NCBI GenBank assembly: GCA_036507075.1
Contig: DASXQR010000059.1
Location: 31,850 to 95,849, forward strand
Direction of reading: 5' to 3'
DNA length: 64,000 bases
Source: Acidobacteriota bacterium
GTDB taxonomy: Bacteria > Acidobacteriota > UBA6911 > JACQSX01
Notes under the pieces: model-generated
Database searches by the model: none
The model's input: only the letters and a program-made list of their open reading frames with translations
Told to the model about the DNA's origin: nothing
Made by a program: the position numbers and the translations under genes
In this document: one piece after another, positions 12,572-45,072 of the stretch
Position numbering within the stretch: the first letter of the stretch is position 1
Layout: each line of letters starts with the position of its first letter

Positions 12572-12665
12572 AACTGAGTGAAGAAGCGCCAGTCGATCCG
12601 GGTTGACCGGCGCGTACGGTCTCAACCATCGAACGTCCGGCACGATCTTCGACACCGCCTGCCTG

Positions 12666-14009
12666 ATGAAACTGATACGGCCCACCTGCTGCTTCCTGAG
12701 CTTGTTCCTTTTCATAGCGCTGAGCATGAGGGAGAACCTGGCTGCTGCCAAACCTGCAAGCAGACCGGCTCTGCAGTCCGAAACAGCGGTCGATTCAACC
12801 ACACTAAACGGAAAACTGATGATGGGTTACCAGGGATGGTTTCTCTGCCCGGCCGACGGCTCACCCGTGAACAGCTGGTTTCACTGGTTCCGCCGCAACC
12901 AGACCCCGGATGCTTCGACCGTTACCGTGGACTTTTGGCCCGACACGTCGGAACTGGAGCCGGACGAACTGTTCATCACACCTTTCACGCGTCCCGATGG
13001 CAGCTCCGCACCCCTCTACTCCTCGTACAAACAAAAGACTGTTCTGCGACATTTCCAATGGATGCAGCAATACGGACTTGATGGGGTATTCCTGCAGCGA
13101 TTCTCATCGGAACTTCGGGACAGCCGCTACTTCAACGTTCGAAACCAGGTTACCCGGAATGTTCTCGCGGGAGCGGAGGCATTCGGGCGTGTCTTTGCCA
13201 TCATGTACGACATCTCCGGCCAGAGTGAAGCCACACTGGTCCAGGATCTCAAGAATGACTGGTCTTACTTGGTAGACACGCTGAAAATAACCGAGAGCTC
13301 CAGCTATTTGAAACATAAAGGAAAGCCCGTGCTGGCGATCTGGGGATTTGGATTCACTGATCGACCCGGAACGCCCGAGCAGGTGCGCCAGCTGATTTCG
13401 TTCTTCCAGTCTGAAGCGCCTGAAAAATATCGGGTCACACTGGTGGGAGGCGTGCCGTCTTACTGGCGCACTCTGACACGGGATTCCAAAACAGATCCGG
13501 CCTGGGCGCAAGTCTATCGCTCGTTTGACGTGCTCAGCCCATGGGCCGTAGGGCGATTCTCCGATGAGGCAGGCGCGGAACGATTCAGGCGCGATGTCAC
13601 TGTGCCTGATCTGGCGGAAACTGCCGCCGGGAACATAGAATACCTGCCCGTCATTTTCCCCGGCTTCTCCTGGTCAAATCTTAACAAAGGACCCTTTAAC
13701 CAGATCCCTCGGTTGGGAGGACGGTTTTATTGGAAGCAGGTCTACAACGCACTCTCGGCGGGAGCGTCGATGCTTTACGGCGCGATGTTCGATGAGGTCG
13801 ATGAAGGCACCGCTATGTTCAAAATGGCGCCTACCCCGCTTCAGATGCCCGAGCAGGGAAGATTCGTGCCTTTAAGCGTCGATGGCTATGCCCTGCCGAG
13901 TGACTGGTATCTCCGCGTTGCGGGCGCGGCAGGAAAAATGCTGCGGCATGAAATCCCCCTGGAGAACGAAATGCCCCTGCCGCTTCCCACTCGAAGAAGA
14001 AGGCCCTGA
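12666..14009 (+). CDS. Secreted glycoside hydrolase, GH71/GH99-like (xylosidase/arabinosidase-type)
   Basis: Signal peptide, MGYQGWF, HFQWMQQYGLDGVFLQRF, MYDISG, SPWAVGR, PVIFPGFSW, AMFDEVDEGTA. Start approximate. Confidence 0.8.
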   Translation: MKLIRPTCCFLSLFLFIALSMRENLAAAKPASRPALQSETAVDSTTLNGKLMMGYQGWFLCPADGSPVNSWFHWFRRNQTPDASTVTVDFWPDTSELEPDELFITPFTRPDGSSAPLYSSYKQKTVLRHFQWMQQYGLDGVFLQRFSSELRDSRYFNVRNQVTRNVLAGAEAFGRVFAIMYDISGQSEATLVQDLKNDWSYLVDTLKITESSSYLKHKGKPVLAIWGFGFTDRPGTPEQVRQLISFFQSEAPEKYRVTLVGGVPSYWRTLTRDSKTDPAWAQVYRSFDVLSPWAVGRFSDEAGAERFRRDVTVPDLAETAAGNIEYLPVIFPGFSWSNLNKGPFNQIPRLGGRFYWKQVYNALSAGASMLYGAMFDEVDEGTAMFKMAPTPLQMPEQGRFVPLSVDGYALPSDWYLRVAGAAGKMLRHEIPLENEMPLPLPTRRRRP

Positions 14010-30188: not shown

Positions 30189-30257
30189 TTGACAGAGCCC
30201 CGCTTACGCGGTACGGTATGCCTGTCAGGTCATCCATTACAGCCAAATGGTCATCCA
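30189..30257 (+). promoter_or_regulatory. Sigma70-like promoter with overlapping candidate MocR/PdxR operator repeats
   Basis: TTGACA(30189)-N17-TACGGT(30212), TGTCAG at 30223, and GGTCATCCA direct repeats at 30228 and 30249. Confidence 0.55.
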
Positions 30258-31743
30258 ATTGATCGCAAACTCAAAACAACCTGTTTACCGCCAGATCGCC
30301 GACGCCATTCAGCAACAAGTACGGCAAGGCCTGCTCAGGACCGGAGAGAAGCTTCCATCGACGCGCCAACTGGCCGATTCGCTGAAGGTAAATCGCACCA
30401 CTGTTTGCCTGGCCTATGACCAGTTAAAGCAGCGTGGGTTCGTAGAATCACACGTAGGGCGCGGGACGCGAATCCTGGGTGGAGGGGAAAACGGCAAGGC
30501 TTCCCGAGGGGGCGACCTGGCTTGGGAGCAGTTGCTCTCTTCCGGCATGAAAACGCTTTTGCGCACGCTGGCGCCGCGCCGTGCCGATGCTGCTGACATT
30601 CAGGCTGATTTTTCCAGGTTGATACCTGATCAAAATCTTTTTCCCGTAGAGGCTTTCGAAGCGATCCTGAAATCGGTAATCCGAAAGCAGGGAGCCGGCC
30701 TGTTTCAGTATGGACCCGCGCTGGGACTTCCCGCTCTTCGATCGCTGATTGCACAACGCATGAAGCGGTGGGGGATCGCCGCCAGCGACTCGGAAATCAT
30801 CATCGTCAACGGCGCGCAGCAGGGAATGGATCTGCTCTTCAAGGCCTTGATCGAGCCGGGCGATGTAGTGGTTGTGGAATCTCCTACATACGCCAACATC
30901 TTGCCGCTGCTCGGATTTTATCGGGCGCAGGTGGTGGGCGTGAACATGACCAGCGGCGGGCTGGACCTGGAGGCTTTTCGCGCCATCGCGGCCCAGCGGG
31001 CGCCCAAGCTGATTTACACCATTCCGAACTTTCAGAATCCCACCGGCATCTGTACGTCGAGTTCTCATCGGCGTCATCTGCTCCGCATTGCCGAAGAGTT
31101 CAACGTTCCGATTCTGGAAGATGGTTACGAAGAGGATTTGCGAACCAGCGGCAGGGGCATACAACCGATCAAGGCGTCCGATCGTGCCGGGCACGTCATT
31201 TACCTGGGCACTTTTTCCAAAGGCTTGTTTCCGGGTTTACGGATCGGCTGGATTGTGGCCAATCGCAGCTTGATTGAAACCCTCGGGGCCGCCAAATTCA
31301 CAACCGACTACCACACCAGCCTGTTGCTTCAGGCGGCACTGGCCGAATTCCTGTCCCGCGGCCACTATGATCGCCACCTGAAGGGGCTTCAGAGAATCCT
31401 GGCTTCACGGCTGCAGGTCGCGATGTCGGCCATGAAGAAGCATTTTCCGCGAGGAGTTCACTGGACCTCCCCTGACGGCGGCTATTCGGTATGGATCACC
31501 GTGCCGGCAGGCGTTTCGGCCCGCCGCATCGCTGAGGAGGCGCAACGCGAAGGTGTGTTAATCACGGCCGGCGATTACTTCTTCAATTCATCGGACGATT
31601 GCTCGTCATTCCGCATGAGTGTTTCCACAGCAGATGAAAATCAGATTCGTGACGGAATCGAGTTGCTGGGAAAAGTAATCGCGCGACAAATACAGGTTAG
31701 CCCGGGAACCGGGAGCATTGGTGGAGATTTACCGCATATCTAA
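30247..31743 (+). CDS. pdxR: MocR/GntR family PLP-dependent regulator, likely PdxR
   Basis: wHTH GEKLPSTRQLADSL.VNRTTV..AY, aminotransferase-like domain (PNFQNPTG, EDGY, GTFSK..PGLRIG). Adjacent to pdxST. Confidence 0.8.
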   Translation: MVIQLIANSKQPVYRQIADAIQQQVRQGLLRTGEKLPSTRQLADSLKVNRTTVCLAYDQLKQRGFVESHVGRGTRILGGGENGKASRGGDLAWEQLLSSGMKTLLRTLAPRRADAADIQADFSRLIPDQNLFPVEAFEAILKSVIRKQGAGLFQYGPALGLPALRSLIAQRMKRWGIAASDSEIIIVNGAQQGMDLLFKALIEPGDVVVVESPTYANILPLLGFYRAQVVGVNMTSGGLDLEAFRAIAAQRAPKLIYTIPNFQNPTGICTSSSHRRHLLRIAEEFNVPILEDGYEEDLRTSGRGIQPIKASDRAGHVIYLGTFSKGLFPGLRIGWIVANRSLIETLGAAKFTTDYHTSLLLQAALAEFLSRGHYDRHLKGLQRILASRLQVAMSAMKKHFPRGVHWTSPDGGYSVWITVPAGVSARRIAEEAQREGVLITAGDYFFNSSDDCSSFRMSVSTADENQIRDGIELLGKVIARQIQVSPGTGSIGGDLPHI

Positions 31744-31779
31744 AATTGGCGAATTGTGTGTTTAAAATTGATTGGTGGT

Positions 31780-31960
31780 TAGGTTACGGGTTTCCGGGTT
31801 ACGGGTTGACGGGTTGACGGGTTACGGGTTGCGGGTTGGAGTAGTTACGGAGTCAAGGTTGAAAATTGGTCGATGCCAATGGCGGTTACTACCGATCCAG
31901 TCCGCTCTAACCGGAACTCTTGCAACTCGTAACTCGTTAACCCGAAACTCGTAATCCGAG
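31780..31960. repeat. Inverted (GGGTTAC/GGGTTGA)n ... (GTAACTC/GTAACCC)n arrays
   Basis: Directly visible. The same family occurs at 51260-51495 and 52675-52992. Confidence 0.75.
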
Positions 31961-32020
31961 AGTCGAACTCAGCAATTTTGAATCTTGAACTTTCTAATTG
32001 ATAGCGCGGAGGAATGAACC

Positions 32021-32902
32021 ATGGAGATCGGAACTTTGAAACTGAAGACCGGACTTGCCGAAATGCTCAAGGGTGGCACCATCATGGATGTCACCAATGC
32101 AGAACAGGCTAAGATCGCCGAGGATGCAGGCGCGGTGGCAGTAATGGCCCTCGAGAGAGTACCGGCCGATATCCGCGCCGAAGGCGGAGTTGCGCGCATG
32201 GCGCCCATCAGCAAGATTCGCGAGATTCAGCAGACCGTCAGCATCCCGGTAATGGCCAAGTGCCGTATTGGACACATTGCCGAAGCGCGCATTCTGGAAG
32301 CCATGAAAGTGGACTTTATCGATGAGAGTGAAGTTCTCACGCCGGCCGATGAGGAAAACCATGTCAACAAAATGGATTTCGTGGTGCCGTTCGTCTGCGG
32401 CGCACGCGATTTGGGAGAAGCTTTGCGCCGCATCGCAGAAGGCGCAGCCCTGATTCGGACCAAGGGAGAAGCAGGATCCGGCAATATCGTCGAGGCGGTT
32501 CGGCACATACGCAAAATTCGCCGCGAACTCCGCACGCTCACCATTGCCGGCGACGAGGAGTTGATGACGGAAGCCAAGCGGCTGGGCGCTCCCTACGAAC
32601 TGGTCAAATGGGTGGCGCGTGAAGGAAAGCTGCCGGTTCCCAATTTCGCCGCCGGCGGCGTCGCCACGCCTGCCGACGCCGCGCTGGTGATGCTGCTGGG
32701 AGCGGAATCGGTCTTCGTGGGCAGCGGTATTTTTAAATCTTCCGATCCGGCCAGCCGCGCGCGCGCCATTGTGCAAGCCGTCACGCACTACAACGACCCG
32801 GAGCGCCTGGCTGCAATATCGGAAGGTCTTGGAGAAGGGATGAAAGGACTCGATATCGCGCAGCTCGATAAAAAGGAGCTGCTTCAAGTGCGGGGCTGGT
32901 AA
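32021..32902 (+). CDS. pdxS: Pyridoxal 5'-phosphate synthase lyase subunit
   Basis: [56 protein letters not shown]. Confidence 0.98.
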
Positions 32903-33004
32903 GTGGAGCACGAATTTAGATCACGAATTACACGAATTACACGAATTTTCACGAAGTAATCTAAAAAGATTCGTGAAATTCGTGATCCACTCCAGGATTT
33001 AGCA

Positions 33005-33583
33005 TTGAGAATAGGTGTGCTCAGTTTCCAAGGCGATTTTGAGGCCCATACGCGGGCCGTTCAGCAGGCAGGCGCGGAACCACTGCAGGTGCGCAATCGA
33101 GATCAACTCGGGCAGTGCGAGGCGCTGATTATTCCCGGTGGTGAGAGCACCACGTTTCTCAAGTTTCTGGAACTGGAAAACTTCACCCAGCCCTTGATCG
33201 ATTTCGGCCGTGAGCGGCCGATCTTCGGCACGTGCGCCGGAGCCATCCTGCTGGCAAGTCAGGTGGAAAATCCGCCGCAGTTCAGTCTCGGCCTGATGGA
33301 CATGACGGTGCGGCGCAATGCCTACGGCCGGCAGGCCGACAGCCACTCGGAGATCTGCAGATCCGAGATGCTGCAGCCTGATTCATTCGAAGCGATTTTC
33401 ATACGGGCTCCGGCAATCACCCGCGTAGGAGATCAAGTCCAGGTACTGGCCAGCAGAGATTCCAATCCGATTTGGGTGCGCCAGGGCTTGCATTGGGCGG
33501 CAACATTTCATCCGGAACTTTCCAGAGACAGAAGGATTCACGAACTCTTTCTGGAGGAGACGAGGAAAAGGGCAAACAGGTAG
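33005..33583 (+). CDS. pdxT: Pyridoxal 5'-phosphate synthase glutaminase subunit
   Basis: QGDF, IIPGGESTT, GTCAGAILL, RRNAYGRQ, FIRAP, FHPEL. Confidence 0.97.
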   Translation: MRIGVLSFQGDFEAHTRAVQQAGAEPLQVRNRDQLGQCEALIIPGGESTTFLKFLELENFTQPLIDFGRERPIFGTCAGAILLASQVENPPQFSLGLMDMTVRRNAYGRQADSHSEICRSEMLQPDSFEAIFIRAPAITRVGDQVQVLASRDSNPIWVRQGLHWAATFHPELSRDRRIHELFLEETRKRANR

Positions 33584-33796
33584 TGGATCAGTTTGAATTC
33601 TGAAGTCTCGGCGAAAACTTAGCGTTCTCTGTGTAACCTGTTGGCAACTTCTTGTGTTTTAGGCAAGATTTCAGAAAACATTCGATCACGTCAACGTCTA
33701 TCGTTGACGTGCACGTGGCCGTCCTCGGTTTTTTCTTTGGTTGCGGCCTTCGGCCGGGCTGCGACTCTGCGGTGAATTCCGACGTATCTTCCATGC

Positions 33797-34813
33797 CTAT
33801 AGCTTCCAGTGTGAGTGGGCGGCTTGTGCTTTGCGGCGGTAGATGTTCCACACCTCTGACCGCTCGATGAGCGGCTCGGTTGCATCGTGCTTTCCCAGCA
33901 TCACTTGCAGTGACTGCCGCACGCACGCTGACAGTGCGGCGAGGTTGTAACCTCCTTCCAGCAGATAAACGATACGGCCGCCGCAAAGCTCCTTTGCCGC
34001 GCGCTGCAGCGACTGGACCACGACTCCGAAACCTCGGGTGCTTATCTGAATCTGCGCCAGCGGATCATCACGATGCGCATCGTATCCGGCGGAAACAAAA
34101 ATCCAGTCCGGCCCGAACCGGCGTAAAATTGCAGGCACCAGGTCCGTGTAGATCGGCAGGAACAAGTCTTCACCCGTCCCCGCGGCAAGCGGAAAATTCA
34201 CCGTAAATCCCTTCCCTTCTCCCCCGCCCGTTTCGTTCCAGTCGCCCGTGCCCGGATAGAACGGGTACTGGTGGCTCGACAGATACAGCACATCGCTGCG
34301 ATCGTAAAAAGAATGCTGCGTTCCATTGCCATGGTGAACATCGAAATCGATGACCGCGACTTTTCGGCTTCCATGCTCGCGTAGAGCCCACTCTGCAGCA
34401 ATGGCGATGTTGTTCAAGAGACAAAAGCCCATCGCCCGCTCCCTTTCGGCGTGATGCCCCGGCGGGCGCACCATCGCAAAACCTGTCGTTCCACTTTTGG
34501 CTGCCTCCCTGGCAACCGCCAGAGCTGTTCCAGCCGCCGCCAGCGCAACCTCAACCGATCGGGCTGATGCGACAGTATCCGGATCCAACCTTGCCCTCCG
34601 GCCGCGAAGTCTCCTCAAACTGTTCAGATAGTCGGCCCCGTGCACCCACTCCGCCTCGGTCCAGGAGGCCGAAGAAACGGGGACAAATTGAAGTTGGGAG
34701 CGCCACGGCAAAGTTTCCAGCATTTGCTGCAGAGCCACAATGCGCTGCGGGCTCTCCGGATGCCCGAAGCCTGGATCGTGTTCGGTAAACAAGGAATCTA
34801 TGGCAACTAGCAT
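33797..34813 (-). CDS. Histone deacetylase-like (HDAC family) amidohydrolase
   Basis: HPESPQR, RPPGHHA, GFCLLNN, DFDVHHGNGTQ, SAGYDAH..DPL, LEGGY. Confidence 0.95.
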   Translation of the reverse strand: MLVAIDSLFTEHDPGFGHPESPQRIVALQQMLETLPWRSQLQFVPVSSASWTEAEWVHGADYLNSLRRLRGRRARLDPDTVASARSVEVALAAAGTALAVAREAAKSGTTGFAMVRPPGHHAERERAMGFCLLNNIAIAAEWALREHGSRKVAVIDFDVHHGNGTQHSFYDRSDVLYLSSHQYPFYPGTGDWNETGGGEGKGFTVNFPLAAGTGEDLFLPIYTDLVPAILRRFGPDWIFVSAGYDAHRDDPLAQIQISTRGFGVVVQSLQRAAKELCGGRIVYLLEGGYNLAALSACVRQSLQVMLGKHDATEPLIERSEVWNIYRRKAQAAHSHWKL

Positions 34814-35021
34814 TGGGCGGTTTGGGCACGAATTACACAAATTACACGACGGTCTTTTTGATTGCAATCTCAGCCCGGGATAACCGGTAAAGCCCGGGAT
34901 CGGCATTCAAGGTGAGCGAGCGCACCCCTACCAGGCTAACTATCATGCAAATGTTGTCCTTCCAGGGTTAATATAGGTGTCACCCCTGAGGGCTTGGGAA
35001 TACAAATACCGTCTGTTTCAC

Positions 35022-36647
35022 ATGGATCTAAGAATCCAATACCACGATTCTGAGGGCAGAGAACACGTTGTCATGATCGACAAGCCGTTGTTTACCATCG
35101 GCCGCAGTCATAACAACGATCTTTGCCTGCCCTTTATGTATGTCTCGCGCGAGCACGCGCAAATCGCGAAACGCGGCAATCAGTTTGTTATTGAGGACCT
35201 GAAGAGCAAACACGGCACTTTCCTGAACGGCACAAAGATCGACTGGGCCACGCTGCAAGACTCCGATCGCATCGCGATCGGGGGCCCAAACGGTATCAAG
35301 ATTACCGTTGGCGGGAAAGACGTTTTCAGCTCCCTGTTGAGCCGCTCGGAAAAGACGCGTGATGGAAAGGGATTCAAGGATATTGCGAATTTACTGGACT
35401 CATTCCAGACGCTGAACGCATCGTTCGAGATTGAAGAACTCCTGAATTTGATCGTAGACGAAGCGATCGAATTGTCGAATGCCGATCGCGGACTGATTAT
35501 GCTGACGCAACCCGACAGCAAGCTGCATTTTGTCTCGGGCCGCGGGCGACAGCGACAGAACGTGGAATTTGCATCATTTTCAGTGAGCAGGCGAGTTCCC
35601 GAAGAATCGATGCGTACCCAGCAGACAGTGGTGATACAGGATTTCACCAATGATTTGTACAGCAAGGGGCATGACACTACGCGCTGGCTGGGATTGAAGT
35701 CGGTTTGCTGTGTTCCGCTGCGCCTCGGCCGAATTGCTCAAACACTGCAACTGACCGCCGATTTCCGTCCCGAATCGCTGGGTGTTCTTTACCTGGACAG
35801 CTGGTCAGCGGTAAATGCCTTCAAGGGCGATGTTCTGAAGGCGCTGGAAACCATCGCCTACGAAGCTTCCATGGCTATCGACAAAGCGAGGAAGTACAAG
35901 GAATCGCTGGAAAAGAAAAAGGCAGAAGGAGAGCAGCACTTCGTGCGTGAGATCCAGCGGCAGCTCATGCCCACCCTGCATCACACCAGGGACTGGGTCG
36001 AGGTCGCGTCGGCGTACGTTCCCTGTCGCGATCTGGGCGGGGACTATACGGATTTGCTGGAATTGCCGGATGATAAGCTGGGACTGGTGATTGCCGAGGT
36101 GTCGGGCAAAGGAACTCCAGCCGCTCTCATCACCTGCCGTTTGCAGGGTCTGCTAGCCGCCAACGCCCTGCTGGATGTCCCGCTGCTGGAGACCATCTCC
36201 AACGTCAACCGCGCCTTGCAGAATCAGCGAAGCGAGCGACGCCTGATCACGCTCTTTTACGGCATCCTGTCCAGAGATGGAAAGCTGACCTATATCAATG
36301 CGGGCCACAATCCTCCCCTGTTGTTACAGCAGGATAAAGTGAAGCGGCTTGAGACGGGCGGACTGATCCTGGGGCTCGCCCGCGACGCACACCGGATCGA
36401 AACGGTGGCGGTCAAACCAGGTGATCTGTTGGTGCTGTTTACCGATGGGCTGACTCAAGCCCAGAATCCTGCGGGTGACGAGTTCGGGGAAGAACGGGTG
36501 ATCGAAAGGATTAGCGCGCATCGAAACGAGTCAAGCGAGGAGCTGGCGCACCTGGTGGTAGATGAACTTCAGCGCTTCTGCAAGGGAACGCCTCTGATGG
36601 ACGATGTCACAATAATGGTGGTCAAGATCAATCCCGCACTGGGCTGA
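35022..36647 (+). CDS. FHA-GAF-SpoIIE/PP2C-type Ser/Thr phosphatase
   Basis: FHA (IGRS, VSREHA, DLKSKHGTFLNG), GAF, and PP2C motifs GGDY, AEVSGKG, NAGH, FTDGL, DDVT. Confidence 0.92.
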   Translation: MDLRIQYHDSEGREHVVMIDKPLFTIGRSHNNDLCLPFMYVSREHAQIAKRGNQFVIEDLKSKHGTFLNGTKIDWATLQDSDRIAIGGPNGIKITVGGKDVFSSLLSRSEKTRDGKGFKDIANLLDSFQTLNASFEIEELLNLIVDEAIELSNADRGLIMLTQPDSKLHFVSGRGRQRQNVEFASFSVSRRVPEESMRTQQTVVIQDFTNDLYSKGHDTTRWLGLKSVCCVPLRLGRIAQTLQLTADFRPESLGVLYLDSWSAVNAFKGDVLKALETIAYEASMAIDKARKYKESLEKKKAEGEQHFVREIQRQLMPTLHHTRDWVEVASAYVPCRDLGGDYTDLLELPDDKLGLVIAEVSGKGTPAALITCRLQGLLAANALLDVPLLETISNVNRALQNQRSERRLITLFYGILSRDGKLTYINAGHNPPLLLQQDKVKRLETGGLILGLARDAHRIETVAVKPGDLLVLFTDGLTQAQNPAGDEFGEERVIERISAHRNESSEELAHLVVDELQRFCKGTPLMDDVTIMVVKINPALG

Positions 36648-36669
36648 TGTGGAAAGTCACATTCCGACG

Positions 36670-37794
36670 TTACAGTTCCGCTGCCGCCTGATAGGATGCG
36701 GCCCCGGCGCTCTTATTGGGAAGCCCGCCCTTAACGGCAAGCCGGTCCGTGTAGTAGCACGACAGCTTGGTGTAGATACAGTGCGCCCGCGGCACCTCCA
36801 GAAAATCGCCTGTTGCCTGAACACACACCGACGGGCAGATCGCGCAGCGATCCAGATAGCGGCATTCGGAGCACTTAAACGGCCCGCTGCGGCGGTGGGA
36901 CTGGTCGACCGTCTGCGGCAAGCCGTCCAGCCGCGCCGCAACATCGGGACCGGGCATGCGTTTGAGGCCGCCGCACAAATCCCCCAGCACGAAGCGCTCA
37001 AATTCCTCCTGCTTGCCGAACGTCCACTTGGGCGTGCGCATCACGCAGTCAAAGATCTTTCCTTCCGGAGTAACCACCCAACTTCCTCTCACACCTTTGC
37101 ACTGGTAGGCCTTCCCGAAGCTGCCCAGAGTAAAGCGCGGGAACGATATCCGCCGGCCTTCGGCGACTTCCTGCGAGCAGAGCTGAAATAAGGATCGAAA
37201 CTGGCGAGCCATTTCACGCAGTTGTTCCTGGCTCCAGGAATGAATTGAATCGATCACAAAATCGCAGTGCCGCACCTTGAGGCTGGAAATGAAGCGCACG
37301 GACTGCTCCAGGTATTGAATATTTCCGGGGTGCACTACCGCGTTCAGGTTCAACTGTATCTGCGGGTATTGCCGGATCTTGTCCAGAACGTTTCGCGTTT
37401 TTTCAAAGGTCTTAGGCCCGCGTCCCGCCTCATGCGACTCCCGGATTCCGTCGAAACTGAGCAGGATTTCCATGGAGATGGAATTCAGGTACTCGAGCTT
37501 TTCGTCGGTCAACAGCAGGCCGTTGCTGGTCATGCTGAAACAGACTTCTTTCACTGCGCGCTTTTGCAGGGTGCGGACCAGGTCGACAGTCTGACGAATC
37601 TTCTCCCATTCCAGCGCGGGCTCTCCTCCATAAAAGTAAATCTTCAGCCGGGGATCGAGGTCCTTGAATGTGAGGCGAACCGCTTTCTCTATCAACTCCC
37701 AGGAAAGCCGTCCCTTGCCGGCGCGGTCCTGATAACAGTAATTGCAAGCGAGATTGCAGCGGTCGGTCAAGTGCAGCGTTAAGGATTTCGTGAT
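36670..37794 (-). CDS. Radical SAM protein with SPASM domain (probable peptide maturase)
   Basis: CNLACNYC, YGGEP, TSNG, SFDG. SPASM-type CKG...PEGKIFDC and CSECRYLDRCAICPSVC...HC. Start uncertain (TTG 37770 or ATC 37794). Confidence 0.9.
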   Translation of the reverse strand: MTKSLTLHLTDRCNLACNYCYQDRAGKGRLSWELIEKAVRLTFKDLDPRLKIYFYGGEPALEWEKIRQTVDLVRTLQKRAVKEVCFSMTSNGLLLTDEKLEYLNSISMEILLSFDGIRESHEAGRGPKTFEKTRNVLDKIRQYPQIQLNLNAVVHPGNIQYLEQSVRFISSLKVRHCDFVIDSIHSWSQEQLREMARQFRSLFQLCSQEVAEGRRISFPRFTLGSFGKAYQCKGVRGSWVVTPEGKIFDCVMRTPKWTFGKQEEFERFVLGDLCGGLKRMPGPDVAARLDGLPQTVDQSHRRSGPFKCSECRYLDRCAICPSVCVQATGDFLEVPRAHCIYTKLSCYYTDRLAVKGGLPNKSAGAASYQAAAEL

Positions 37795-37874
37795 GACACT
37801 CCCCGGACAAAAACTCTTTCTAAGCCGCTTGGCAAGTTCAGCCCGACCGTTTAATTCGTGGAATAGACCAGGAA

Positions 37875-37912
37875 AGGGGCCGATTAGTAGCTTGGGGGGC
37901 TAATCGGCCCCT
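37875..37912 (-). terminator. 13-bp stem hairpin between the peptide gene and the rSAM gene (leaky terminator or mRNA stabiliser)
   Basis: aggggccgattag (37875-37887) pairs with ctaatcggcccct (37900-37912). Only a short U-run follows on the minus strand. Confidence 0.7.
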
Positions 37913-37940
37913 GGAGAACCCAGGAGACTCCAGAGATCCC

Positions 37941-38156
37941 TTACTTCTGCGTCAGCTCTGGAATTCTGGGCCACATAACGCCGCAGCCGAATTCATTCTT
38001 TACGTTGGCGCCGGCGTTGAGCCTGTTTTGGATTGAAGAAAGATGGCCGTAAATCGACTCCAGCGTCGGGTCGGCGCCGGTCCCGGCCAGTTGCCCGAGC
38101 TTAAGATTGATCTGGTTTAGCGAGTCGTTGATCTCAGAAAGGCGAGTGAAATGCAT
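37941..38156 (-). CDS. 71-aa candidate RiPP precursor peptide
   Basis: Strong RBS AAGGAGA before ATG. Helical N-part and C-terminal tail EFGCGVMWPRIPELTQK. Directly upstream of the rSAM/SPASM gene. Confidence 0.75.
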   Translation of the reverse strand: MHFTRLSEINDSLNQINLKLGQLAGTGADPTLESIYGHLSSIQNRLNAGANVKNEFGCGVMWPRIPELTQK

Positions 38157-38271
38157 TGAATCTCCTTAGCGTTGAGGTTGAAGTTGACGGTTGCAGCTCT
38201 TCTTCAGGAGAACCATATTTCCGGCCCCTCGTAACGGGAACATACTCTCCGAGCCACAGGCTGACTGCGTT

Positions 38272-38307
38272 TGTCAATAATTTGACAGCGTATTATGATA
38301 ATGTCAA
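38272..38307. promoter_or_regulatory. Triple TTGACA/TGTCAA operator-like site upstream of the precursor gene
   Basis: TGTCAA(38272)-N4-TTGACA(38282)-N14-TGTCAA(38302) in an AT-rich patch. Confidence 0.5.
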
Positions 38308-38380
38308 GCGAAATTATGCAGGCTGTTTTTTGACGTAAAATTCGCGCGCCTGACGATGAATCTAAAGGACTTTAGACGGT

Positions 38381-38599
38381 TTATGGGGTTGGTTTTTTGT
38401 CGGGCAGGGATTTGTTCTTGACCGTTTCGGACTCGAATTCCGCCTTATGGGCTGCGATTTCGTGCTCGATCCAGCGAAGGTGGGCGGAAATGAACTGAAT
38501 CAGATTTGGGTCGGCACCCGACTCTTGCAGTTCCTGCAGCTTCTTTTTCACTTCCCGCAACGACTTTTTGATCTCTTGATAGGTGCTGCTTCTCTTCAT
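38381..38599 (-). CDS. 72-aa small protein paralogous to the precursor leader
   Basis: 16/42 identities to the 71-aa peptide in a manual alignment (EIxxSL...KLxxLxxxGADPxL...IxxHLxxI). Weak RBS. Confidence 0.7.
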   Translation of the reverse strand: MKRSSTYQEIKKSLREVKKKLQELQESGADPNLIQFISAHLRWIEHEIAAHKAEFESETVKNKSLPDKKPTP

Positions 38600-38691
38600 T
38601 TGTGGAGCACGAATTTTTTGTTGAACACGAATTTTCACGAATTTTCACGAATTTCACGAAGTTATTCTTGAGATCCGTGAAATAGATTCTC

Positions 38692-41397
38692 TCAAGGAGT
38701 GGATACAGCGGACTGGAGGCGTCTCTTTTCCCGCTCAACCGTTCCCGGATCGGCGTCGGCCCATAAATCTTCGAACTGCTTGAGGTGCCTGGCGGCACTC
38801 TCGGGCGTCGTCCTTCTCAATGCCAACGACAGGCCGAGATGGGCGTCCGGCCAGTTGGGACAGATCTCAAGGGCCTTTCCATAAGCCGCGACTGCTTCGC
38901 TCGTTCTTCCCTGAGCGAGCAGCGCGTTACCCCACTCAGTGTCGAAATATGGCGCGTTTCCAATGCGCGCCGATTCCGCCGCTTTTGCAAACAGCGGCAG
39001 CGCCTCGCCTCCCTTTCCCTGCGCGAACATCAATTGGGCCTGGATACGATATGTGTAAGGCGACGATGCAAAACGCGCAGACACGTTGCGGTTGAGGGCT
39101 TCCAACTGGGGATGCTTCTTTTGCCGCAGAAAAACGTCAGCCAGCACGTTGAAAGTTTCAGGAGACTTCTCTTGATCAGGAATTCGCTCCAGTAACTGCC
39201 ACGCACGCTCCAGATCATCCTGCGCCACCGCCACCCGAGCCAAACCCGTGGATGCGAGCGACCAAAACCGAGGCGCAGCCTTTAAGGAGCTCAATTTCTC
39301 GTATACCTCCTGCGCCGTCTTCAACTGGCCGAGAGCCTCATAGACCAACCCTATTTCCAGCCTGGCGATTCCCTCGTCAAACTGTTCCGCTGCGGTGAAG
39401 TCCTGCAGAGCCTTGCTGTAGTCCCCGCGCGTCAAATGATACTCCCCCAAACGAACGAAGGTGACACCACGATAAGGCTCGATCTGGCGCATCTTCTGCA
39501 ACGCGACTTCGACTTCCTTCCACCGGTGTTGCTGGATCAGTGCCTGCATAAGGATGTCGGATGCGTAGTACGAGTACGGGTTCAAAACCTGCAGCAATCT
39601 GCCGGCAGACACGGCGCGGTCCCACAGGCTGTAGGTCATCGAGATTTCACCCGCCAGCGCAAGCGCGCGTTCGTCACCGCTGTAGTTCTTCATTATGGCG
39701 TCAACGGCGGCAATCGAGCCCGCCTTATCATGTTGTAAAACGCCGCTGATCGTTCTGACGAGGAACCGCTCTTTTTCCGGCGCGGAGGGCGCCTCGCGCA
39801 GGGCGCGCGTTCGCGCCTGCTCGATTTCATCCGGAGGACGCGAGGCGGAATATCGAGTTAACGCAAGCCGTCCCCAGGCCATGGAGAAGGCCGGATCTTC
39901 TGCAACTGCCTGCTGCAGATGACCGATCGCCTCGGAGAAGCTCGAATCGGCTTCGGCCTGTTCGGCCAGCAGGAAACTGCGATAAGCCGCCGGGCTCTTT
40001 GTTCCCAGCGCAGTGGGCTGCTTCTGCTCCAGCCTCAGGGCGAACTGCTGTGAGAAGAATGTCTGCGCCAGATCGTCCAGTTTGGACCAGAGCTCGCTGG
40101 TGAGCACTCTTCCGTTGACAACCTTGGCAAAAAGCACATTCCACTGAAGCGGATCGTTGAACGAACATTGGATATCAAAACTTTGCCCCAACTGTTTCAA
40201 CCGCGTCAGCAGCAAAAAGTTCGGTTTGATCCGGCGGCTGACTGCGCGCGCAGTCTCTTCATCGAGCGGGCCGCTCGTATCGCGCTGCAGGATCCTGAGC
40301 ACGTCGTGGATCTGACGCACAGAAATTGGCCGGGCGCTCTGATAAGCCTCCGCTCTCTCGCTTAACGCCTGGCTGACAGTCCAGGCATACTCGCTGTCCG
40401 GCACGGTGGAATCTTTCAACGGTAAAACCAGGATTGTTTTGGAGGCCGACGGTGTTGCGGCCGGCGGTCGCCAGTTCCGCCAGGCCAGAAAGGCGGCTGC
40501 GATTACAAAAATGAGCGCCGCTGCGATTGCGGTGAGGGCTTCCCGGGAGAACCTCTTCCTGGGAAACGCCACCGCGACTTCGCGGCCCTGGATGGCCTCC
40601 TCCAGCGCCTCTTGCAGCAGGCGCGCGCTTGCGGGCCTTTCCAGCGGATTCTTTCGCAACGACCATTGGATGATGTTCTTGACAGACGCCGGAACATCGC
40701 TTGCGGCCACATCGACTTCGTCCCGCGACACGATGCTTGCAATCGTGGCCGATGTCGTTTCTTTGAGGAACGGATTCTTGCCGGTAACCATCTCGTGAAG
40801 CACGGCGCCCAGGGCGAAGATATCGGACTGAATTGTCGCCGGTTTTCCATCCAGTTGCTCGGGAGACATATAGGAAAGCGTGCCGCGAATTCCTTCCGAT
40901 GTTCCCACGTGAGGAATGGTATCGGTGCGCTCATGCTCTGTGGCCTGGACTTCGGCCAATCCAAAATCAAGCAGTTTGACCTGACCCTCGCCGGTGACCA
41001 TGATATTGCCAGGCTTGATGTCGCGATGGACCATACCCTTTGTTTCGGCGGCTGCCAGCGCCGCGGCGACCTGCTGCGCGACCGAAAGCGCCTCGGCAAG
41101 GGGCAACGGTCCCTGTTCGAGTCGCTTGGCAACGGAGACGCCTTCCACCAGCTCCATCACGATGAATTCGATTCCGCTCTGCTGGCCGACTTCGTACACC
41201 GTGGCAACATTGGGGTGAGTCAAGCGCGACGCCGCGCGCGCTTCGCGCAGGATCGATGCTCCTCTTTCATCCGGGTGGATTAATTTGAGCGCGACAGGGC
41301 GTCGCAGCCGCAGGTCTTCCGCTTTGAAAACGGTCCCCATGCCGCCCTCGCCCAGCTTCCCGTCGATCCGGTAATGGCCAATCGTCTGCCCGATCAT
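38692..41397 (-). CDS. Membrane Ser/Thr protein kinase with C-terminal TPR repeats
   Basis: LGEGGMG, VALK, HRDIKPGN, DFGLA, YMSPEQ, DIFALG, then one TM helix and TPR-like repeats. Confidence 0.95.
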   Translation of the reverse strand: MIGQTIGHYRIDGKLGEGGMGTVFKAEDLRLRRPVALKLIHPDERGASILREARAASRLTHPNVATVYEVGQQSGIEFIVMELVEGVSVAKRLEQGPLPLAEALSVAQQVAAALAAAETKGMVHRDIKPGNIMVTGEGQVKLLDFGLAEVQATEHERTDTIPHVGTSEGIRGTLSYMSPEQLDGKPATIQSDIFALGAVLHEMVTGKNPFLKETTSATIASIVSRDEVDVAASDVPASVKNIIQWSLRKNPLERPASARLLQEALEEAIQGREVAVAFPRKRFSREALTAIAAALIFVIAAAFLAWRNWRPPAATPSASKTILVLPLKDSTVPDSEYAWTVSQALSERAEAYQSARPISVRQIHDVLRILQRDTSGPLDEETARAVSRRIKPNFLLLTRLKQLGQSFDIQCSFNDPLQWNVLFAKVVNGRVLTSELWSKLDDLAQTFFSQQFALRLEQKQPTALGTKSPAAYRSFLLAEQAEADSSFSEAIGHLQQAVAEDPAFSMAWGRLALTRYSASRPPDEIEQARTRALREAPSAPEKERFLVRTISGVLQHDKAGSIAAVDAIMKNYSGDERALALAGEISMTYSLWDRAVSAGRLLQVLNPYSYYASDILMQALIQQHRWKEVEVALQKMRQIEPYRGVTFVRLGEYHLTRGDYSKALQDFTAAEQFDEGIARLEIGLVYEALGQLKTAQEVYEKLSSLKAAPRFWSLASTGLARVAVAQDDLERAWQLLERIPDQEKSPETFNVLADVFLRQKKHPQLEALNRNVSARFASSPYTYRIQAQLMFAQGKGGEALPLFAKAAESARIGNAPYFDTEWGNALLAQGRTSEAVAAYGKALEICPNWPDAHLGLSLALRRTTPESAARHLKQFEDLWADADPGTVEREKRRLQSAVSTP

Positions 41398-41802
41398 CGG
41401 CTTGCTGCGCGGAGAAAAGCGGGGGGCATCAAAATGCACAAGTATCTGCCTCTAAATGCGCTTGCCGGAGAAAACAAATGCCGCCCGGAGATCATTGGCC
41501 AAATCTCAGAACCGTCACTACGTTGCATGTCAACGCCGGGCGGCGCGTCCCAGCTATCAATACGAACAACTATAGCAATTGGTTCGCCTTAGCAAGATTT
41601 ATTGTTTATACCAAAACGGCGCCAAATTTTAGACACAATGCGAGACGGGAAAAGTTGATCGAAAGACTCGGGAACCCTGGTTTCGAATCCCACCAGCAAG
41701 CCCGAATGCGGATTTCGGAATGCGGAATGCGGAATAAGAAGCGACTTGGCCTCAGCTTAGAGAACTCCAACCTGGATATATTCCGAAATCCGCATTTAAG
41801 GA

Positions 41803-42552
41803 TCATGGCGCCGGCGGCATTTCGTGGAAATTGGAATAGCGGCGCGATTCCCGTTGTCGCGCCCGGTTAAGGAGACGGCGCGTTCGTATTTCAAAGTGAA
41901 AGGAGTCGGGAAGCCAGTCACCGGTGATCTGTTGTTGACCGTAGAAGATTTCCATTTTGGTCACCCTGGCCAGAAATAGTTTGTAATTTACTGGTCGAAA
42001 AAGCTGCGCGCGCGCTTTCAATAATTGTTTCTGATCAAATAAGACCCACAGGTCACCCTGAAGGCTGGACATCAGCTTCTCCAGATTACTCCTGGCCTGA
42101 GGCTGGTTCTTCTTGGGAGTGAAATGGATTCGAGCGACATCGCGTCCCTGAAACTTCTCGAATGCGGCGATCTTGAAGTCGTATCGTTGAGCGACCTTCT
42201 CAAAATTCCAGTCAGGCACTCCCTCAGGTGCTGGTTCTTTGACAAAGGGCTCGTCAACTAACCTGCCGTCGACTTGCAGGCGACGGCTTTCGCGCAGGTC
42301 GCCTTTCACCCGCCACTCGAATTTCTCATGAGTTGATGCCGCTACGCGGTCATGCGAATCCAGTTTGTCGCTGACTCGATCCTCCTGGTACGCCCAGTTT
42401 CGAAGTTTAACGGGCTTCTGAATTTGGACAAATTTCTGGATAATTCTTTCAGCGTCGCCGGCGTCGAAAGCCGGCTTGTCAGCAGGGAGAGCGGTAACTG
42501 AAAGTACGAGCAGGATCAAAAGGCAGCGCAGCAGGCGTTTTCCCAGCATCAA
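41803..42552 (-). CDS. Secreted hypothetical protein (beta-rich, MucB/LolA-like fold possible)
   Basis: Signal peptide and YDFK...IHFTPK...GDLWV pattern. Confidence 0.65.
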   Translation of the reverse strand: MMLGKRLLRCLLILLVLSVTALPADKPAFDAGDAERIIQKFVQIQKPVKLRNWAYQEDRVSDKLDSHDRVAASTHEKFEWRVKGDLRESRRLQVDGRLVDEPFVKEPAPEGVPDWNFEKVAQRYDFKIAAFEKFQGRDVARIHFTPKKNQPQARSNLEKLMSSLQGDLWVLFDQKQLLKARAQLFRPVNYKLFLARVTKMEIFYGQQQITGDWLPDSFHFEIRTRRLLNRARQRESRRYSNFHEMPPAP

Positions 42553-42581
42553 GCGAACTCAAACTTACCAAATCCTGGAGA

Positions 42582-42815
42582 TCACCACTTGAAATCCGGC
42601 GGGTAATAAAGTTGAGAGCAGACCTGGCACCGCAACAATGCGATGTTTTTTCGGCGTCTGCCGATCTCGCGTTCGATTTCCTTCTGGCGCTTGCGATCTT
42701 CCTCGTTGAAATAGTCTGAAAAAGGGTAGTAGACCTTCAAAGACCCGTCGCAACGCTTCCCTTTGGCGTCCTTCTCCGTGCAGACATGCTGATCGGGTTG
42801 TAGCGGTTTAATCAT
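42582..42815 (-). CDS. Small Cys-containing protein, possible zinc ribbon
   Basis: HVC...RC...CQVC. Co-oriented, 44 bp downstream of the cytochrome b gene. Confidence 0.65.
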   Translation of the reverse strand: MIKPLQPDQHVCTEKDAKGKRCDGSLKVYYPFSDYFNEEDRKRQKEIEREIGRRRKNIALLRCQVCSQLYYPPDFKW

Positions 42816-42859
42816 TCAAGTGGAAAGTTAACAGAGAGAAGTTATCAGGTCCAAGAAGT

Positions 42860-44386
42860 TTACTTGAATCTGAGCAGAAAATCGCTCAGGTCGGAGAGTT
42901 CCTGATCGCTGAGGTAATCGAAGGCCGGCATCTTGGATTTAGGCACCAGTTTCTCCGGGTCCTTAAAGTGCTCGATCATCCATTTTTTGTCCCGCTTCGA
43001 CCCCACACGATCCAGGCTGGGACCGCTGATTCCACCCGCTCCGAGCAGGGTGTGACATCCGCCGCAGGAGTTCAGCACAAACAGGCCCGCACCGTGCAGT
43101 TCTGCGGGACTCAGATCGAGCTTCGGCCGGGCCTGCATATAGGCCGAAAGCGTGCTCGCAACGCGAGCGGAGATTTTCGGGGAGGTCGCCAGTTGCACGT
43201 TCTTATCGCGCGCGTGCTGCTGGATCCAGGCGTCGTCGGGAACTCCTTTGAGCCTATCGAGTTGATGGCAGGAGGCGCACTTCTGGCCGAAAAAGAATGC
43301 TCCGGACGTTTCCGCCACGCCTATGCCGGTCGCCGCAGGAGGGCTGCCGCGGCTCCCGAGAAAAGTCAGCACGACCAGGCAAAGGACGAATACGCCGCCC
43401 GCTGCGGCAAAAGGCTTGCGCGCGCCGATTCGTCTCTCCGGCTTTCGGTCCAGGAACGGCAGCGCAAGCAGCACCAGAAAAACCAGGGCCGGCACTACCA
43501 TCGCGCCCACAATCTCCAGTTTGCCGGGAAAATACTTCAGCAACTGATAGAGCGGAAGAAAATACCAGTCCGGCTTCGGCTCGGCGCCGGAAGCATTCAA
43601 ATCCGCCGGCGCCTCCAGCGGCGCCGAGCGCATCAGCGACAGCGCAAGCAGGACAACAAATGCCACAAAAATCATGGTGGCGTCGCGCGCCGCATGCCGC
43701 GGATAAAACTCCTCCCTTTCGGGGTCCTGCTCATATTTTGGAGGCGCGGTAATTCCGTGGCGTCTCATCAGCGACAGGTGCGCCACGATCAGAGCCACGA
43801 TCAATGCCGGAAGCACCACGACGTGGAGCGTATAAAAACGCGTCAGCGTCATGGCGCCCACCTGGCTTCCGCCGCGCAGAAAAGTGCTTATATAGCTTCC
43901 CAGCACCGGCGCCAGGCCGGCGATGTTGGTGCCGACCACGGTTCCCCAGTAAGCCTTCTGATCCCAGGGAAGCAAATATCCTGTGAATCCAAAGGCGAGC
44001 ACCAGCAGCAGCAGGAACACGCCGCTCATCCATGTCAATTCTCGCGGGGCCTTGTAGGATCCATAGAAAAAGACGCGCCCCATGTGCAGGAACACCACGA
44101 TCACCATAAAGCTGGCGCCCCAATGGTGGAGCGCGCGCACCAAGCCTCCTAGAACCACCTGATACTGGATATAGCGCACGCTGGCATACGCGGACTGCGG
44201 AGTGGGCGCGTAATAAAGCGCCAGAACAATGCCCGTAATGACCTGGACAATGAAGAAGAAGAGCGCGAGGCTTCCCAGCGTATAGAACCAGTTGATGCGC
44301 GACGGAACGTTTTCGCGCATCCAATGATTCCAGAGATGATCCACGCCCGAGCGGGAGCGGAACCAGTCAGCGAGGCGACGCAGCAT
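42860..44386 (-). CDS. Cytochrome b (b6 + subunit IV) fused to two c-type heme motifs
   Basis: HHWGAS, FLHMGR, GYLLPWDQKAYW, RFYTLH, KPDWYFL. CASCH and CGGCH. Confidence 0.93.
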   Translation of the reverse strand: MLRRLADWFRSRSGVDHLWNHWMRENVPSRINWFYTLGSLALFFFIVQVITGIVLALYYAPTPQSAYASVRYIQYQVVLGGLVRALHHWGASFMVIVVFLHMGRVFFYGSYKAPRELTWMSGVFLLLLVLAFGFTGYLLPWDQKAYWGTVVGTNIAGLAPVLGSYISTFLRGGSQVGAMTLTRFYTLHVVVLPALIVALIVAHLSLMRRHGITAPPKYEQDPEREEFYPRHAARDATMIFVAFVVLLALSLMRSAPLEAPADLNASGAEPKPDWYFLPLYQLLKYFPGKLEIVGAMVVPALVFLVLLALPFLDRKPERRIGARKPFAAAGGVFVLCLVVLTFLGSRGSPPAATGIGVAETSGAFFFGQKCASCHQLDRLKGVPDDAWIQQHARDKNVQLATSPKISARVASTLSAYMQARPKLDLSPAELHGAGLFVLNSCGGCHTLLGAGGISGPSLDRVGSKRDKKWMIEHFKDPEKLVPKSKMPAFDYLSDQELSDLSDFLLRFK

Positions 44387-44388
44387 TT

Positions 44389-44853
44389 CTATCCGGATCG
44401 AATAACGAGCTTGTTATCGCGAATTTCAGCGGGTATTTCTTCCAGCGGTCGCGGCGGCGGCCCCGCTACGACGTCGCCGTTCAGATTGTACTGGCCGCCG
44501 TGACAGGGACAGTTGAATTTCTTGTCGCTCTCGTCCCAATCCACCTGGCAGCCAAGATGAGTGCACACCGGAGAAAATACCCTCACCTTGCCGCCACTCT
44601 TAACCACAAAAACTTTTCTCTGAATACGTTGCTGGTTCCAGCCGTCGGAGCGAAGAATCTCGACCATTTTCACCTGGGGCGCGTTGTCAGGAATCTGCCC
44701 GACCTCTCCCAGGTCAACTCCCTGAGGAAGCGAACCCGACTTTTTGAAGACAGGAGAAAACGCCGCGCCCAGTGTGAGGGCGGATAAAATTCCGGCGGGG
44801 ATCGCAGCAAAAAACCAGAACGTCGTCTTGAAAAACTCCCGGCGAGAATCCAT
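44389..44853 (-). CDS. Rieske 2Fe-2S subunit of the bc complex
   Basis: SRREFF Tat signal, CTHLGC, CPCHGG, GPPPRPL. Confidence 0.95.
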   Translation of the reverse strand: MDSRREFFKTTFWFFAAIPAGILSALTLGAAFSPVFKKSGSLPQGVDLGEVGQIPDNAPQVKMVEILRSDGWNQQRIQRKVFVVKSGGKVRVFSPVCTHLGCQVDWDESDKKFNCPCHGGQYNLNGDVVAGPPPRPLEEIPAEIRDNKLVIRSG

Positions 44854-45072
44854 GCAGTTGACCCAGGCAAAAAAACTAAGAGATTACTCAGCTCAAAGCT
44901 GCCAAGGTTAACAAAGCATGAGTGCGAGTGCAATCGCGTTTGAATTTAAGCACGCCGGCGATCGAGCTTCGGGCCATCCTGCCTTTGTGGCAAATCTAGA
45001 ATGCCACGAAGACACGATGACACGAAGACTGGAATGGGCCCTCACTGATCAAGATTGCCGGGGCTTCCTCTG

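Follow-up and report, generated by a model that had tools for sequence, protein, structure and literature searches.

A candidate peptide-signalling cassette combining a radical SAM/SPASM enzyme, a putative precursor peptide and a receptor-like Ser/Thr kinase in Acidobacteriota

We analysed a stretch of 64,000 nucleotides (hereafter the window) from contig DASXQR010000059.1 of an Acidobacteriota bacterium (assembly GCA_036507075.1), and in particular a four-gene cassette at positions 36670 to 41397 that the initial annotation had proposed to be an undescribed peptide-modification and signalling system. All four genes are located on the minus strand, in the order that had been described, and the GC content of the cassette is 0.567, compared to 0.561 for the 6.1-Mb genome. 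The first gene (41397-38692) encodes a 901-aa membrane protein that harbors a Ser/Thr kinase domain (Pkinase, 1e-46, Pfam), a transmembrane helix and tetratricopeptide repeats (TPRs). It is followed by a 72-aa open reading frame (ORF; 38599-38381) and by a 71-aa ORF (38156-37941) that is preceded, as announced, by a strong ribosome-binding site (RBS), AAGGAG. A perfect hairpin (37912-37875; 13-bp stem, 12-nt loop, U-poor tail) does lie between this ORF and the last gene (37791-36670), which encodes a radical S-adenosylmethionine (SAM) enzyme of 373 aa from a probable ACG start, with a CxxxCxxC motif and a Cys-rich SPASM tail.

The 71-aa peptide consists of a helical-hairpin leader and a tail that carries its single Cys (Cys58, in E-F-G-C) and Trp62-Pro63; it contains 9 Ser/Thr, and its monoisotopic mass without modification is 7804.97 Da. 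The 72-aa peptide has the same two-helix leader, without Cys and without the Gly-Cys core. Their alignment score is 67, compared to 20.3 +/- 3.6 for shuffled sequences, none of 2000 scoring as high, and no further copy of either peptide was found in the genome. A search of the ESM Atlas with the 71-aa peptide returned nothing at 0.9 or above.

Two close loci only were found, and the window cassette belongs with them to a rare TPR-receptor branch of three loci. The first one, the metagenome locus L019, encodes an enzyme 89% identical to that of the window and retains the full gene order, both peptides and the hairpin. The second one, G005 (enzyme 63% identical), has the order kinase, enzyme and a single family peptide of 79 aa with the same leader, the 72-aa paralog being absent. 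The window kinase is 46% identical to the G005 kinase and 65% identical to the L019 fragment. Synteny of the peptides and the enzyme with the kinase is therefore kept at both loci, as it is family-wide (see below), and homologous peptides do stand beside the close homologues of the enzyme. The 71-aa ORF is 73% identical to its L019 copy, with nonsynonymous (pN) and synonymous (pS) differences per site of 0.18 and 0.57; the 72-aa ORF is 56% identical to its own copy (pN 0.28, pS 0.92) and is Cys-free in both. In the alignment, the 71-aa peptide has (D/E)-x-G-C behind the second leader helix in common with its copy in L019 and with the peptide of G005. Furthermore, P0160, found by profile search outside the query alignment, keeps D-P-G-C with changed residues after it, and (D/E)-x-x-C is present in all four precursors of this branch. 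Since the 71-aa relatives share (D/E)-x-G-C and the 72-aa copies are Cys-free, the 71-aa ORF is likely the precursor and substrate, as first suggested, and comparison supports the 72-aa ORF as a conserved leader-like paralog without core.

Beyond these loci, the family was sampled with the best 80 of 526 GTDB loci and 40 of 43 further matches, giving 120 loci, 116 of them distinct. Seven SPASM Cys, in Cx2Cx5Cx2C spacing, are invariant down to distant members (25-33% identity), and the window enzyme stands in the tree on a long branch with G005 and L019. According to record titles, the family occurs in Acidobacteriota (including Vicinamibacteria, Thermoanaerobaculia and Holophagae), Eisenbacteria, Krumholzibacteriota and others. 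The link between a peptide maturase and a Ser/Thr kinase gene, one of the initial claims, extends to this whole family: of the 78 loci that have the motif and no less than 3.2 kb of upstream sequence, 71 carry an adjacent Ser/Thr kinase (58 upstream in the same orientation, 7 convergent and 6 divergent), or 71/76 once two low-scoring enzymes are dropped. By comparison, the share of the window's genome found within 4.5 kb of a kinase domain is 1.7%. None of 11 outgroup enzymes with Cx5Cx3C spacing, most of them from other phyla, has an adjacent kinase, nor is one present at four other loci of the window's class that are outside the family. Among the five kinase-free exceptions, three have a kinase-free TPR protein upstream, one is on a contig that ends 711 bases downstream and one has no identified receptor. 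No description of the system was found in the literature searched, most subscription journals being outside the search, in agreement with the term undescribed.

Several observations concern individual loci. The kinase-free TPR proteins encoded before peptide and enzyme (L171:4316-6124, L182:3697-5541, L179:3504-4871) are 29-42% identical to each other and unrelated to the outer domain of the window kinase; the N-termini of two of them, which match no family, may be small DNA-binding helices. The divergent kinase of L074, with its generic outer domain, could be adjacent by chance. The outgroup loci L051, L052, L076, L083 and L185 are without kinases, with Cx5Cx3C wherever the motif could be read, and the enzymes of L051, L052 and L185 are each preceded by a protein of another family with a C-terminal motif in common. 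Some genes look interrupted in the assemblies (the L067 precursor and the L053, L090 and L128 kinases).

Candidate precursors were picked by RBS and position, and all 78 contain Cys, compared to a mean of 37.9 and a maximum of 50 in the kinase-window control; two of the 78 were later judged spurious and dropped, and likely precursors later found by eye at several loci, on the same or opposite strand, are not included in the Cys counts. With an RBS score of at least 6, Cys is present in 71/71 adjacent short ORFs, versus 221/389 ORFs of the window's genome and 38/57 elsewhere in the loci under the same criteria. Cys accounts for 0.66% of the first 30 residues and 2.9% of the following ones. Among 69 non-redundant precursors, Gly-Cys occurs in 29 (9.9 after shuffling) and Cys-Pro in 28 (13.3 after shuffling), and 33 have a single core Cys. 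Cys is among the last three residues in 13 and any acceptor must therefore be upstream in those. The precursors are 53-146 aa long, often with helices before and after the Cys region, and at the divergent loci whose kinase carries a Reg_prop propeller they are single-Cys helical peptides encoded on the kinase strand. None of 68 precursors matches NCBIfam, and the leader family is thus as unrecognised as had been stated. Hidden Markov models of the leaders did not unite the precursors of all branches: the window group of five stays separate, with weak cross-matches (E 0.018-0.16). In the precursors of L062, L077, L088 and L110, leader-like helices flank the Cys region, partly as internal repeats, and those of L063, L078 and L100 have repeated cores.

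The enzyme has the expected motifs, namely CxxxCxxC (C12/C16/C19), GGEP and a C-terminal SPASM domain with seven Cys (231, 249, 307, 310, 316, 319, 338) in Cx2Cx5Cx2C spacing; the Cys are invariant alignment columns and the fold matches agree. The start had been placed at TTG 37770. ACG 37791 is probably the right one because GGGAG (37803-37799) lies 7 nt upstream, the ATG of G005 aligns with it, L019 has the same ACG and starting at TTG would truncate the first strand of the structure model. The structure model (pLDDT 91.3) opens with the first barrel strand, without any RiPP (ribosomally made, post-translationally modified peptide) recognition element (RRE), and most full-length relatives also begin 7-20 residues before the profile match. 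The highest NCBIfam score is that of PapB (NF047865; 126.2 bits, cut-off 340), and each of the 39 aligned members matches this model with an E-value no higher than 1e-20. The scores are also below the cut-offs for CteB/SCIFF (TIGR03974; 82.9, cut-off 425), the anaerobic sulfatase-maturating enzymes (anSME; TIGR03942; 59.9, cut-off 349) and the cyclophane maturases GrrM/OscB (51.1, cut-off 310), YhhB (56.9, cut-off 445) and DynA (53.6, cut-off 450). The best profile match among solved structures is CteB (9e-45, versus 2e-29 for anSME); by fold, anSME and CteB are equal (TM-score 0.72), followed by ChlB (0.67). The enzyme thus groups by sequence with PapB and CteB rather than with anSME, despite the tie in fold, and is most like a thioether-forming maturase, though outside every named family. 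A viperin/pVip identity was rejected (58.6 bits, cut-off 180; the enzyme has a SPASM domain), as was a known defence system, the PADLOC matches covering only the kinase or the radical SAM core (enzyme residues 3-173).

The seven-Cys SPASM domain of CteB leaves its site open for the thiol of the substrate. CteB, which acts on CteA (the SCIFF ranthipeptide; PDB 5WGG, 5WHY), resembles the window enzyme in these seven Cys. However, it has an N-terminal RRE, Cx5Cx3C spacing and a precursor with six core Cys, versus no RRE, Cx5Cx2C and one core Cys here. At six catalytic-site positions of SPASM enzymes, taken from the available part of PMC10288494, the residues are Y,Y,T,S,V,M in the window enzyme, F,F,T,S,H,Q in CteB and F,Q,Q,S,D,F in anSME. 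PapB, which modifies PapA to freyrasin, carries its RRE in residues 1-86 and acts on Cxxx(D/E) motifs (PMC12715619, available part). Although PapB is the top NCBIfam match, the window enzyme has no RRE, and Cxxx(D/E) is absent from the window peptide, lost in P0160 and not enriched in the family (17/69 versus 13.0 after shuffling, p 0.125). ChlB makes aromatic cyclophanes, whereas the constant residue in the present family is Cys. Of similar length and also RRE-less (TM-score 0.67), ChlB was solved with a leader (PDB 9GM3, available part of the record), indicating that RRE-less enzymes can bind a leader directly. A complex predicted from the enzyme, the 71-aa peptide, the clusters and SAM reached a score of 0.02 and a mark of 0.32, no controls having been folded.

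The SPASM enzymes that act on Cys without an RRE include anSME (PDB 4K36-4K39), and the Cys of the precursor might be oxidised alone in the same style, to formylglycine, a thioaldehyde or a decarboxylated end, with no cross-link. A tied fold match, the frequent single core Cys and the lack of any conserved acceptor count in its favour, yet it appears improbable: the anSME family score is far from its cut-off, positions 2 and 3 of the active site are Tyr and Thr (Phe and Thr in CteB) instead of the Gln and Gln of anSME, an extra Cys at the additional-ligand position of anSME occurs in only 6/60 family members, and the Asp that anSME has after its auxiliary Cys does not figure among the six most frequent residues at that position in the family. 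Furthermore, the present family has short peptides and receptors as neighbours, among which no enzyme family is recurrent.

Known systems offer examples of small thioether rings made from one Cys. The enteropeptin (KGR) thioether is a six-membered thiomorpholine ring made from one Cys (PMC12395415, available part), and in the NxxC peptides Cys is joined to an upstream Asn (PMC13361665, available part). Together with the QMP peptides, these radical SAM RiPPs (RaS-RiPPs) combine small one-Cys thioether rings with a genetic link to peptide signalling. However, their operons are controlled by a separate unmodified short hydrophobic peptide (SHP) and a cytoplasmic Rgg regulator, whereas here it is the putative modified peptide that goes with a membrane Ser/Thr kinase. 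Several streptococcal and enterococcal RaS-RiPPs also inhibit their own producers (PMC13361665, available part), so that the product here might be an antimicrobial or self-inhibiting RiPP, with the neighbouring kinase as a regulator or immunity factor. The strong variability of the cores would suit such a role, which we nevertheless regard as very improbable given that no transporter, protease or immunity gene recurs and that almost all loci retain a dedicated receptor domain some 550 residues long.

The receptor protein of the window comprises a kinase domain (residues 9-263), a transmembrane helix at about 287-305 (hydropathy 2.64), an alpha/beta domain and a long TPR superhelix. Its motifs are those of an intact Hanks-type kinase (GxGGxGxV, VAxK, HRDxKPxN, DFG, GTxxYMxPE), and its genome contains 12 kinase-domain matches. 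Because basic residues precede the transmembrane helix, the TPR region is predicted to be outside the cytoplasm; a helix of transmembrane strength is found beside the kinase domain in 65/75 family kinases. The model of the outer domain (residues 307-901; pLDDT 85.5) matches generic TPR superhelices only, as does the ESM Atlas (generic TPR clusters). This domain is 42% identical to that of G005 and reaches at most 44 bits with any other tested, and we therefore consider it a separate sensor type. A homologue search limited to 8000 candidates returned only the domain itself, a result of little weight since the G005 orthologue was also missed.

The largest branch of the family has instead a PD40 propeller of about 550 residues as outer part. 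In this branch, each of the 57 outer domains resembles the others (42% identity) more than it resembles any of 12 non-adjacent kinases (27%), whereas the kinase domains show no such separation (0/57; 44% vs 41% identity). Separation means here that the weakest score to an outer domain of an adjacent kinase exceeds the best score to the 12 non-adjacent ones; L080 was left out of the test and L105 out of the minimum. For 16 PD40 proteins, chosen across the tree after seeing it, the outer domains group together on one side of a branch (99/99), while a single clade for the kinase domains is rejected (p-AU 7e-8). Over 51 loci, the enzyme distance correlates with the outer-domain distance (rho 0.41) more than with the kinase-domain distance (rho 0.14), the outer domain being twice as long, which lowers its distance noise. 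Since the outer domain is co-inherited and the kinase domain is not, the outer domain appears to be the part tied to the peptide, which fits ligand binding and not peptide phosphorylation.

These data also bear on the idea that the kinase has a tailoring role and that phosphorylation of the precursor is part of the natural product. Its catalytic motifs are intact, the precursor offers nine Ser/Thr, and the kinase weakly matches TIGR04510 (peptide modification system cyclase; residues 290-544, 2.7e-14; 52.7, cut-off 400) and TIGR03903 (TOMM kinase/cyclase fusion; 122, cut-off 706), two NCBIfam families of signalling-type proteins named after peptide-modification loci. However, the protein has no cyclase domain and its maturase is of a different class; no paper naming either family was found in the literature searched. 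The kinase domains are not one lineage and kinase-free TPR proteins replace them. As no Ser/Thr position near Cys is strongly enriched either (the best being Thr at +4, twofold), this role is highly improbable.

We propose instead a three-part module made of receptor, precursor and maturase, with a lineage-specific fourth gene. In a first step, the enzyme would bind the 71-aa precursor through its helical-hairpin leader without RRE and oxidise the core at Cys58; modification at this residue is quite probable. The product would most likely be a small thioether ring (-2 Da), whose likeliest acceptors lie N-terminal of Cys58, either the alpha-carbon of Gly57 or the acidic residue at -3. The Gly-Cys bias would correspond, as a guess by analogy with the available part of PMC12395415, to an enteropeptin-like six-membered ring. 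The second step is the weakest: the modified peptide or a fragment would leave the cytoplasm along a path for which the locus has no genes, such as a general exporter or cell damage. Finally, the product would bind the outer TPR domain and switch Ser/Thr phosphorylation inside the cell, which is rather likely provided that the first step takes place. Overall, we consider it an evenly balanced proposition that the modified peptide is a signalling ligand of the neighbouring receptor kinase.

A number of observations weigh against this proposal. As had been noted, no protease, exporter or separate RRE gene adjoins the cassette, an S49 peptidase gene lying 8 kb away; moreover, around 92 family loci neither an exporter nor a protease is recurrent (the highest recurrence being 6 loci), and none of 83 peptides has a signal-peptide-like stretch. 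These are the parts by which a peptide quorum-sensing circuit would be recognised. Signalling is thus inferred, and the route to the outer domain is missing. On the chemical side, (D/E)-x-x-C, found in 16/69 precursors versus 13.3 after shuffling, is ruled out as a family-wide acceptor motif and is limited to the window's branch, no acceptor residue being conserved family-wide; the His and Gln that follow the auxiliary Cys in CteB are Val and Met here, and anSME equals CteB by fold. On the receptor side, the L094 enzyme has no identifiable receptor, and the protein that precedes a family precursor and enzyme at L080 (L080:1041-5462; kinase-nSTAND1-WD40) has no transmembrane helix. The statistics on outer domains were obtained in the PD40 branch; in that of the window, which has three loci only, the kinase domain (58%) is more conserved relative to G005 than the outer domain (42%). 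Besides, related loci share ancestry and the cores vary strongly, so that the counts are not independent.

The missing route would be of no consequence if the module acted inside the cell, the receptor sensing another outside cue and the helical peptide acting downstream of the kinase, as a small cytoplasmic partner, inhibitor or substrate that is switched by the Cys modification. Precursors of this size with helices around the Cys resemble small folded proteins more than peptides to be cut out, and the existence of a conserved Cys-free paralog, like the lack of export machinery and signal peptides, would be readily accommodated. Nevertheless, a protein that partners the kinase domain would be expected to be inherited with it, while in the PD40 branch the outer domain is co-inherited and the kinase domains are exchanged, and three loci have a TPR protein without any kinase. 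Hence, we see an intracellular role as unlikely, while giving it more room than any of the rivals above.

Plant peptide hormones act on receptor-like kinases, and the present family invites a comparison. Tentatively, it could be a widespread peptide-hormone system of uncultured Acidobacteriota, Eisenbacteria and relatives, in which a cyclised Cys peptide would be the direct ligand of a eukaryote-type receptor Ser/Thr kinase. In such a system, the peptide-enzyme pair would be coupled to at least four unrelated sensors (the PD40 propeller, two kinds of TPR and the Reg_prop propeller) and to exchangeable outputs, and the duplicated coreless precursor would be a genetically encoded antagonist in the window lineage. 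Many receptor-like Ser/Thr kinases are encoded in Acidobacteriota, and to our knowledge none of their ligands is known. As a receptor, its candidate ligand and the maturase of that ligand come together in each cassette of the family, the ligand question becomes testable for these kinases. The enzymes are also relevant to enzyme chemistry and peptide cyclisation, since they are RRE-less, act on very different cores around one Cys and may make an unassigned type of ring. What the window locus itself contributes is a TPR sensor of a separate type, a paralog that lacks the core yet is under selection, an enzyme with a probable ACG start and the comparison of outer and kinase domains.

From its sequence and conservation only, the 72-aa paralog, with a leader and no core, may be a decoy that competes for the maturase and damps the signal, a role to which we give slightly less than even weight. 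It is less likely to be a trans-acting leader or chaperone, and a decaying duplicate is more doubtful still. At the three other two-peptide loci seen (L068, L081, L188), both peptides contain Cys. The coreless paralog also provides a natural control for leader recognition.

The initial argument that a precursor-hairpin-maturase layout keeps peptide in excess of enzyme holds for the window lineage and fails for the family. Perfect stems of at least 12 bp number 211 in the genome, with about 0.005 expected per 150 nt, and L019 has a 12-bp copy with one compensated pair. However, a perfect stem of at least 8 bp is present at this position in only 3/63 testable family loci, which rules out a family-wide attenuator. 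The 144-nt region containing the hairpin folds no better than shuffled sequences (z -0.73), and the hairpin was not listed by a terminator scan whose loop limit is 8 nt, versus a loop of 12 nt here. The hairpin is probably a lineage-specific RNA-stabilising or attenuating stem and, together with the ACG start, would keep the enzyme below the peptide.

Upstream of the precursor, a TTGACA-N14-TGTCAA-N4-TTGACA element (38272..38307, minus strand) is a candidate operator or promoter. L019 has it almost without change, with synonymous sites close to saturation, and the genome contains a single copy. A sigma-70 scan gave there an opposite-strand site only, at chance frequency, and an Rfam scan of window 33000-45000 gave no match at E up to 1. 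A 14-base near-palindrome (38362-38375) directly after the stop of the 72-aa ORF is largely retained in L019. Between the kinase gene and this ORF (about 38610-38670) are short tandem repeats of the TTCGTGAAAA type, whose 16-base unit has 35 copies in the genome and is hence a general intergenic repeat.

Outside the cassette, two ORFs of 876 aa (7135-9765, plus strand) and 468 aa (12603-14009, plus strand) have no Pfam family at E 1e-6. Ordinary neighbours include a GntR-aminotransferase regulator followed by two genes that we take to be pdxS and pdxT (30247-33583, plus strand) and a histone-deacetylase-like gene (33797-34906, minus strand). Finally, a gene encoding an FHA-GAF-SpoIIE phosphatase of PP2C type (34977-36647, plus strand) is tail to tail with the radical SAM gene, with 22 bases between their ends. 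The L019 sequence stops too early to show whether this gene adjoins there, and at G005 a LytTR response regulator and a histidine kinase occupy the position. A phosphatase of this type is a natural partner for a Ser/Thr kinase.

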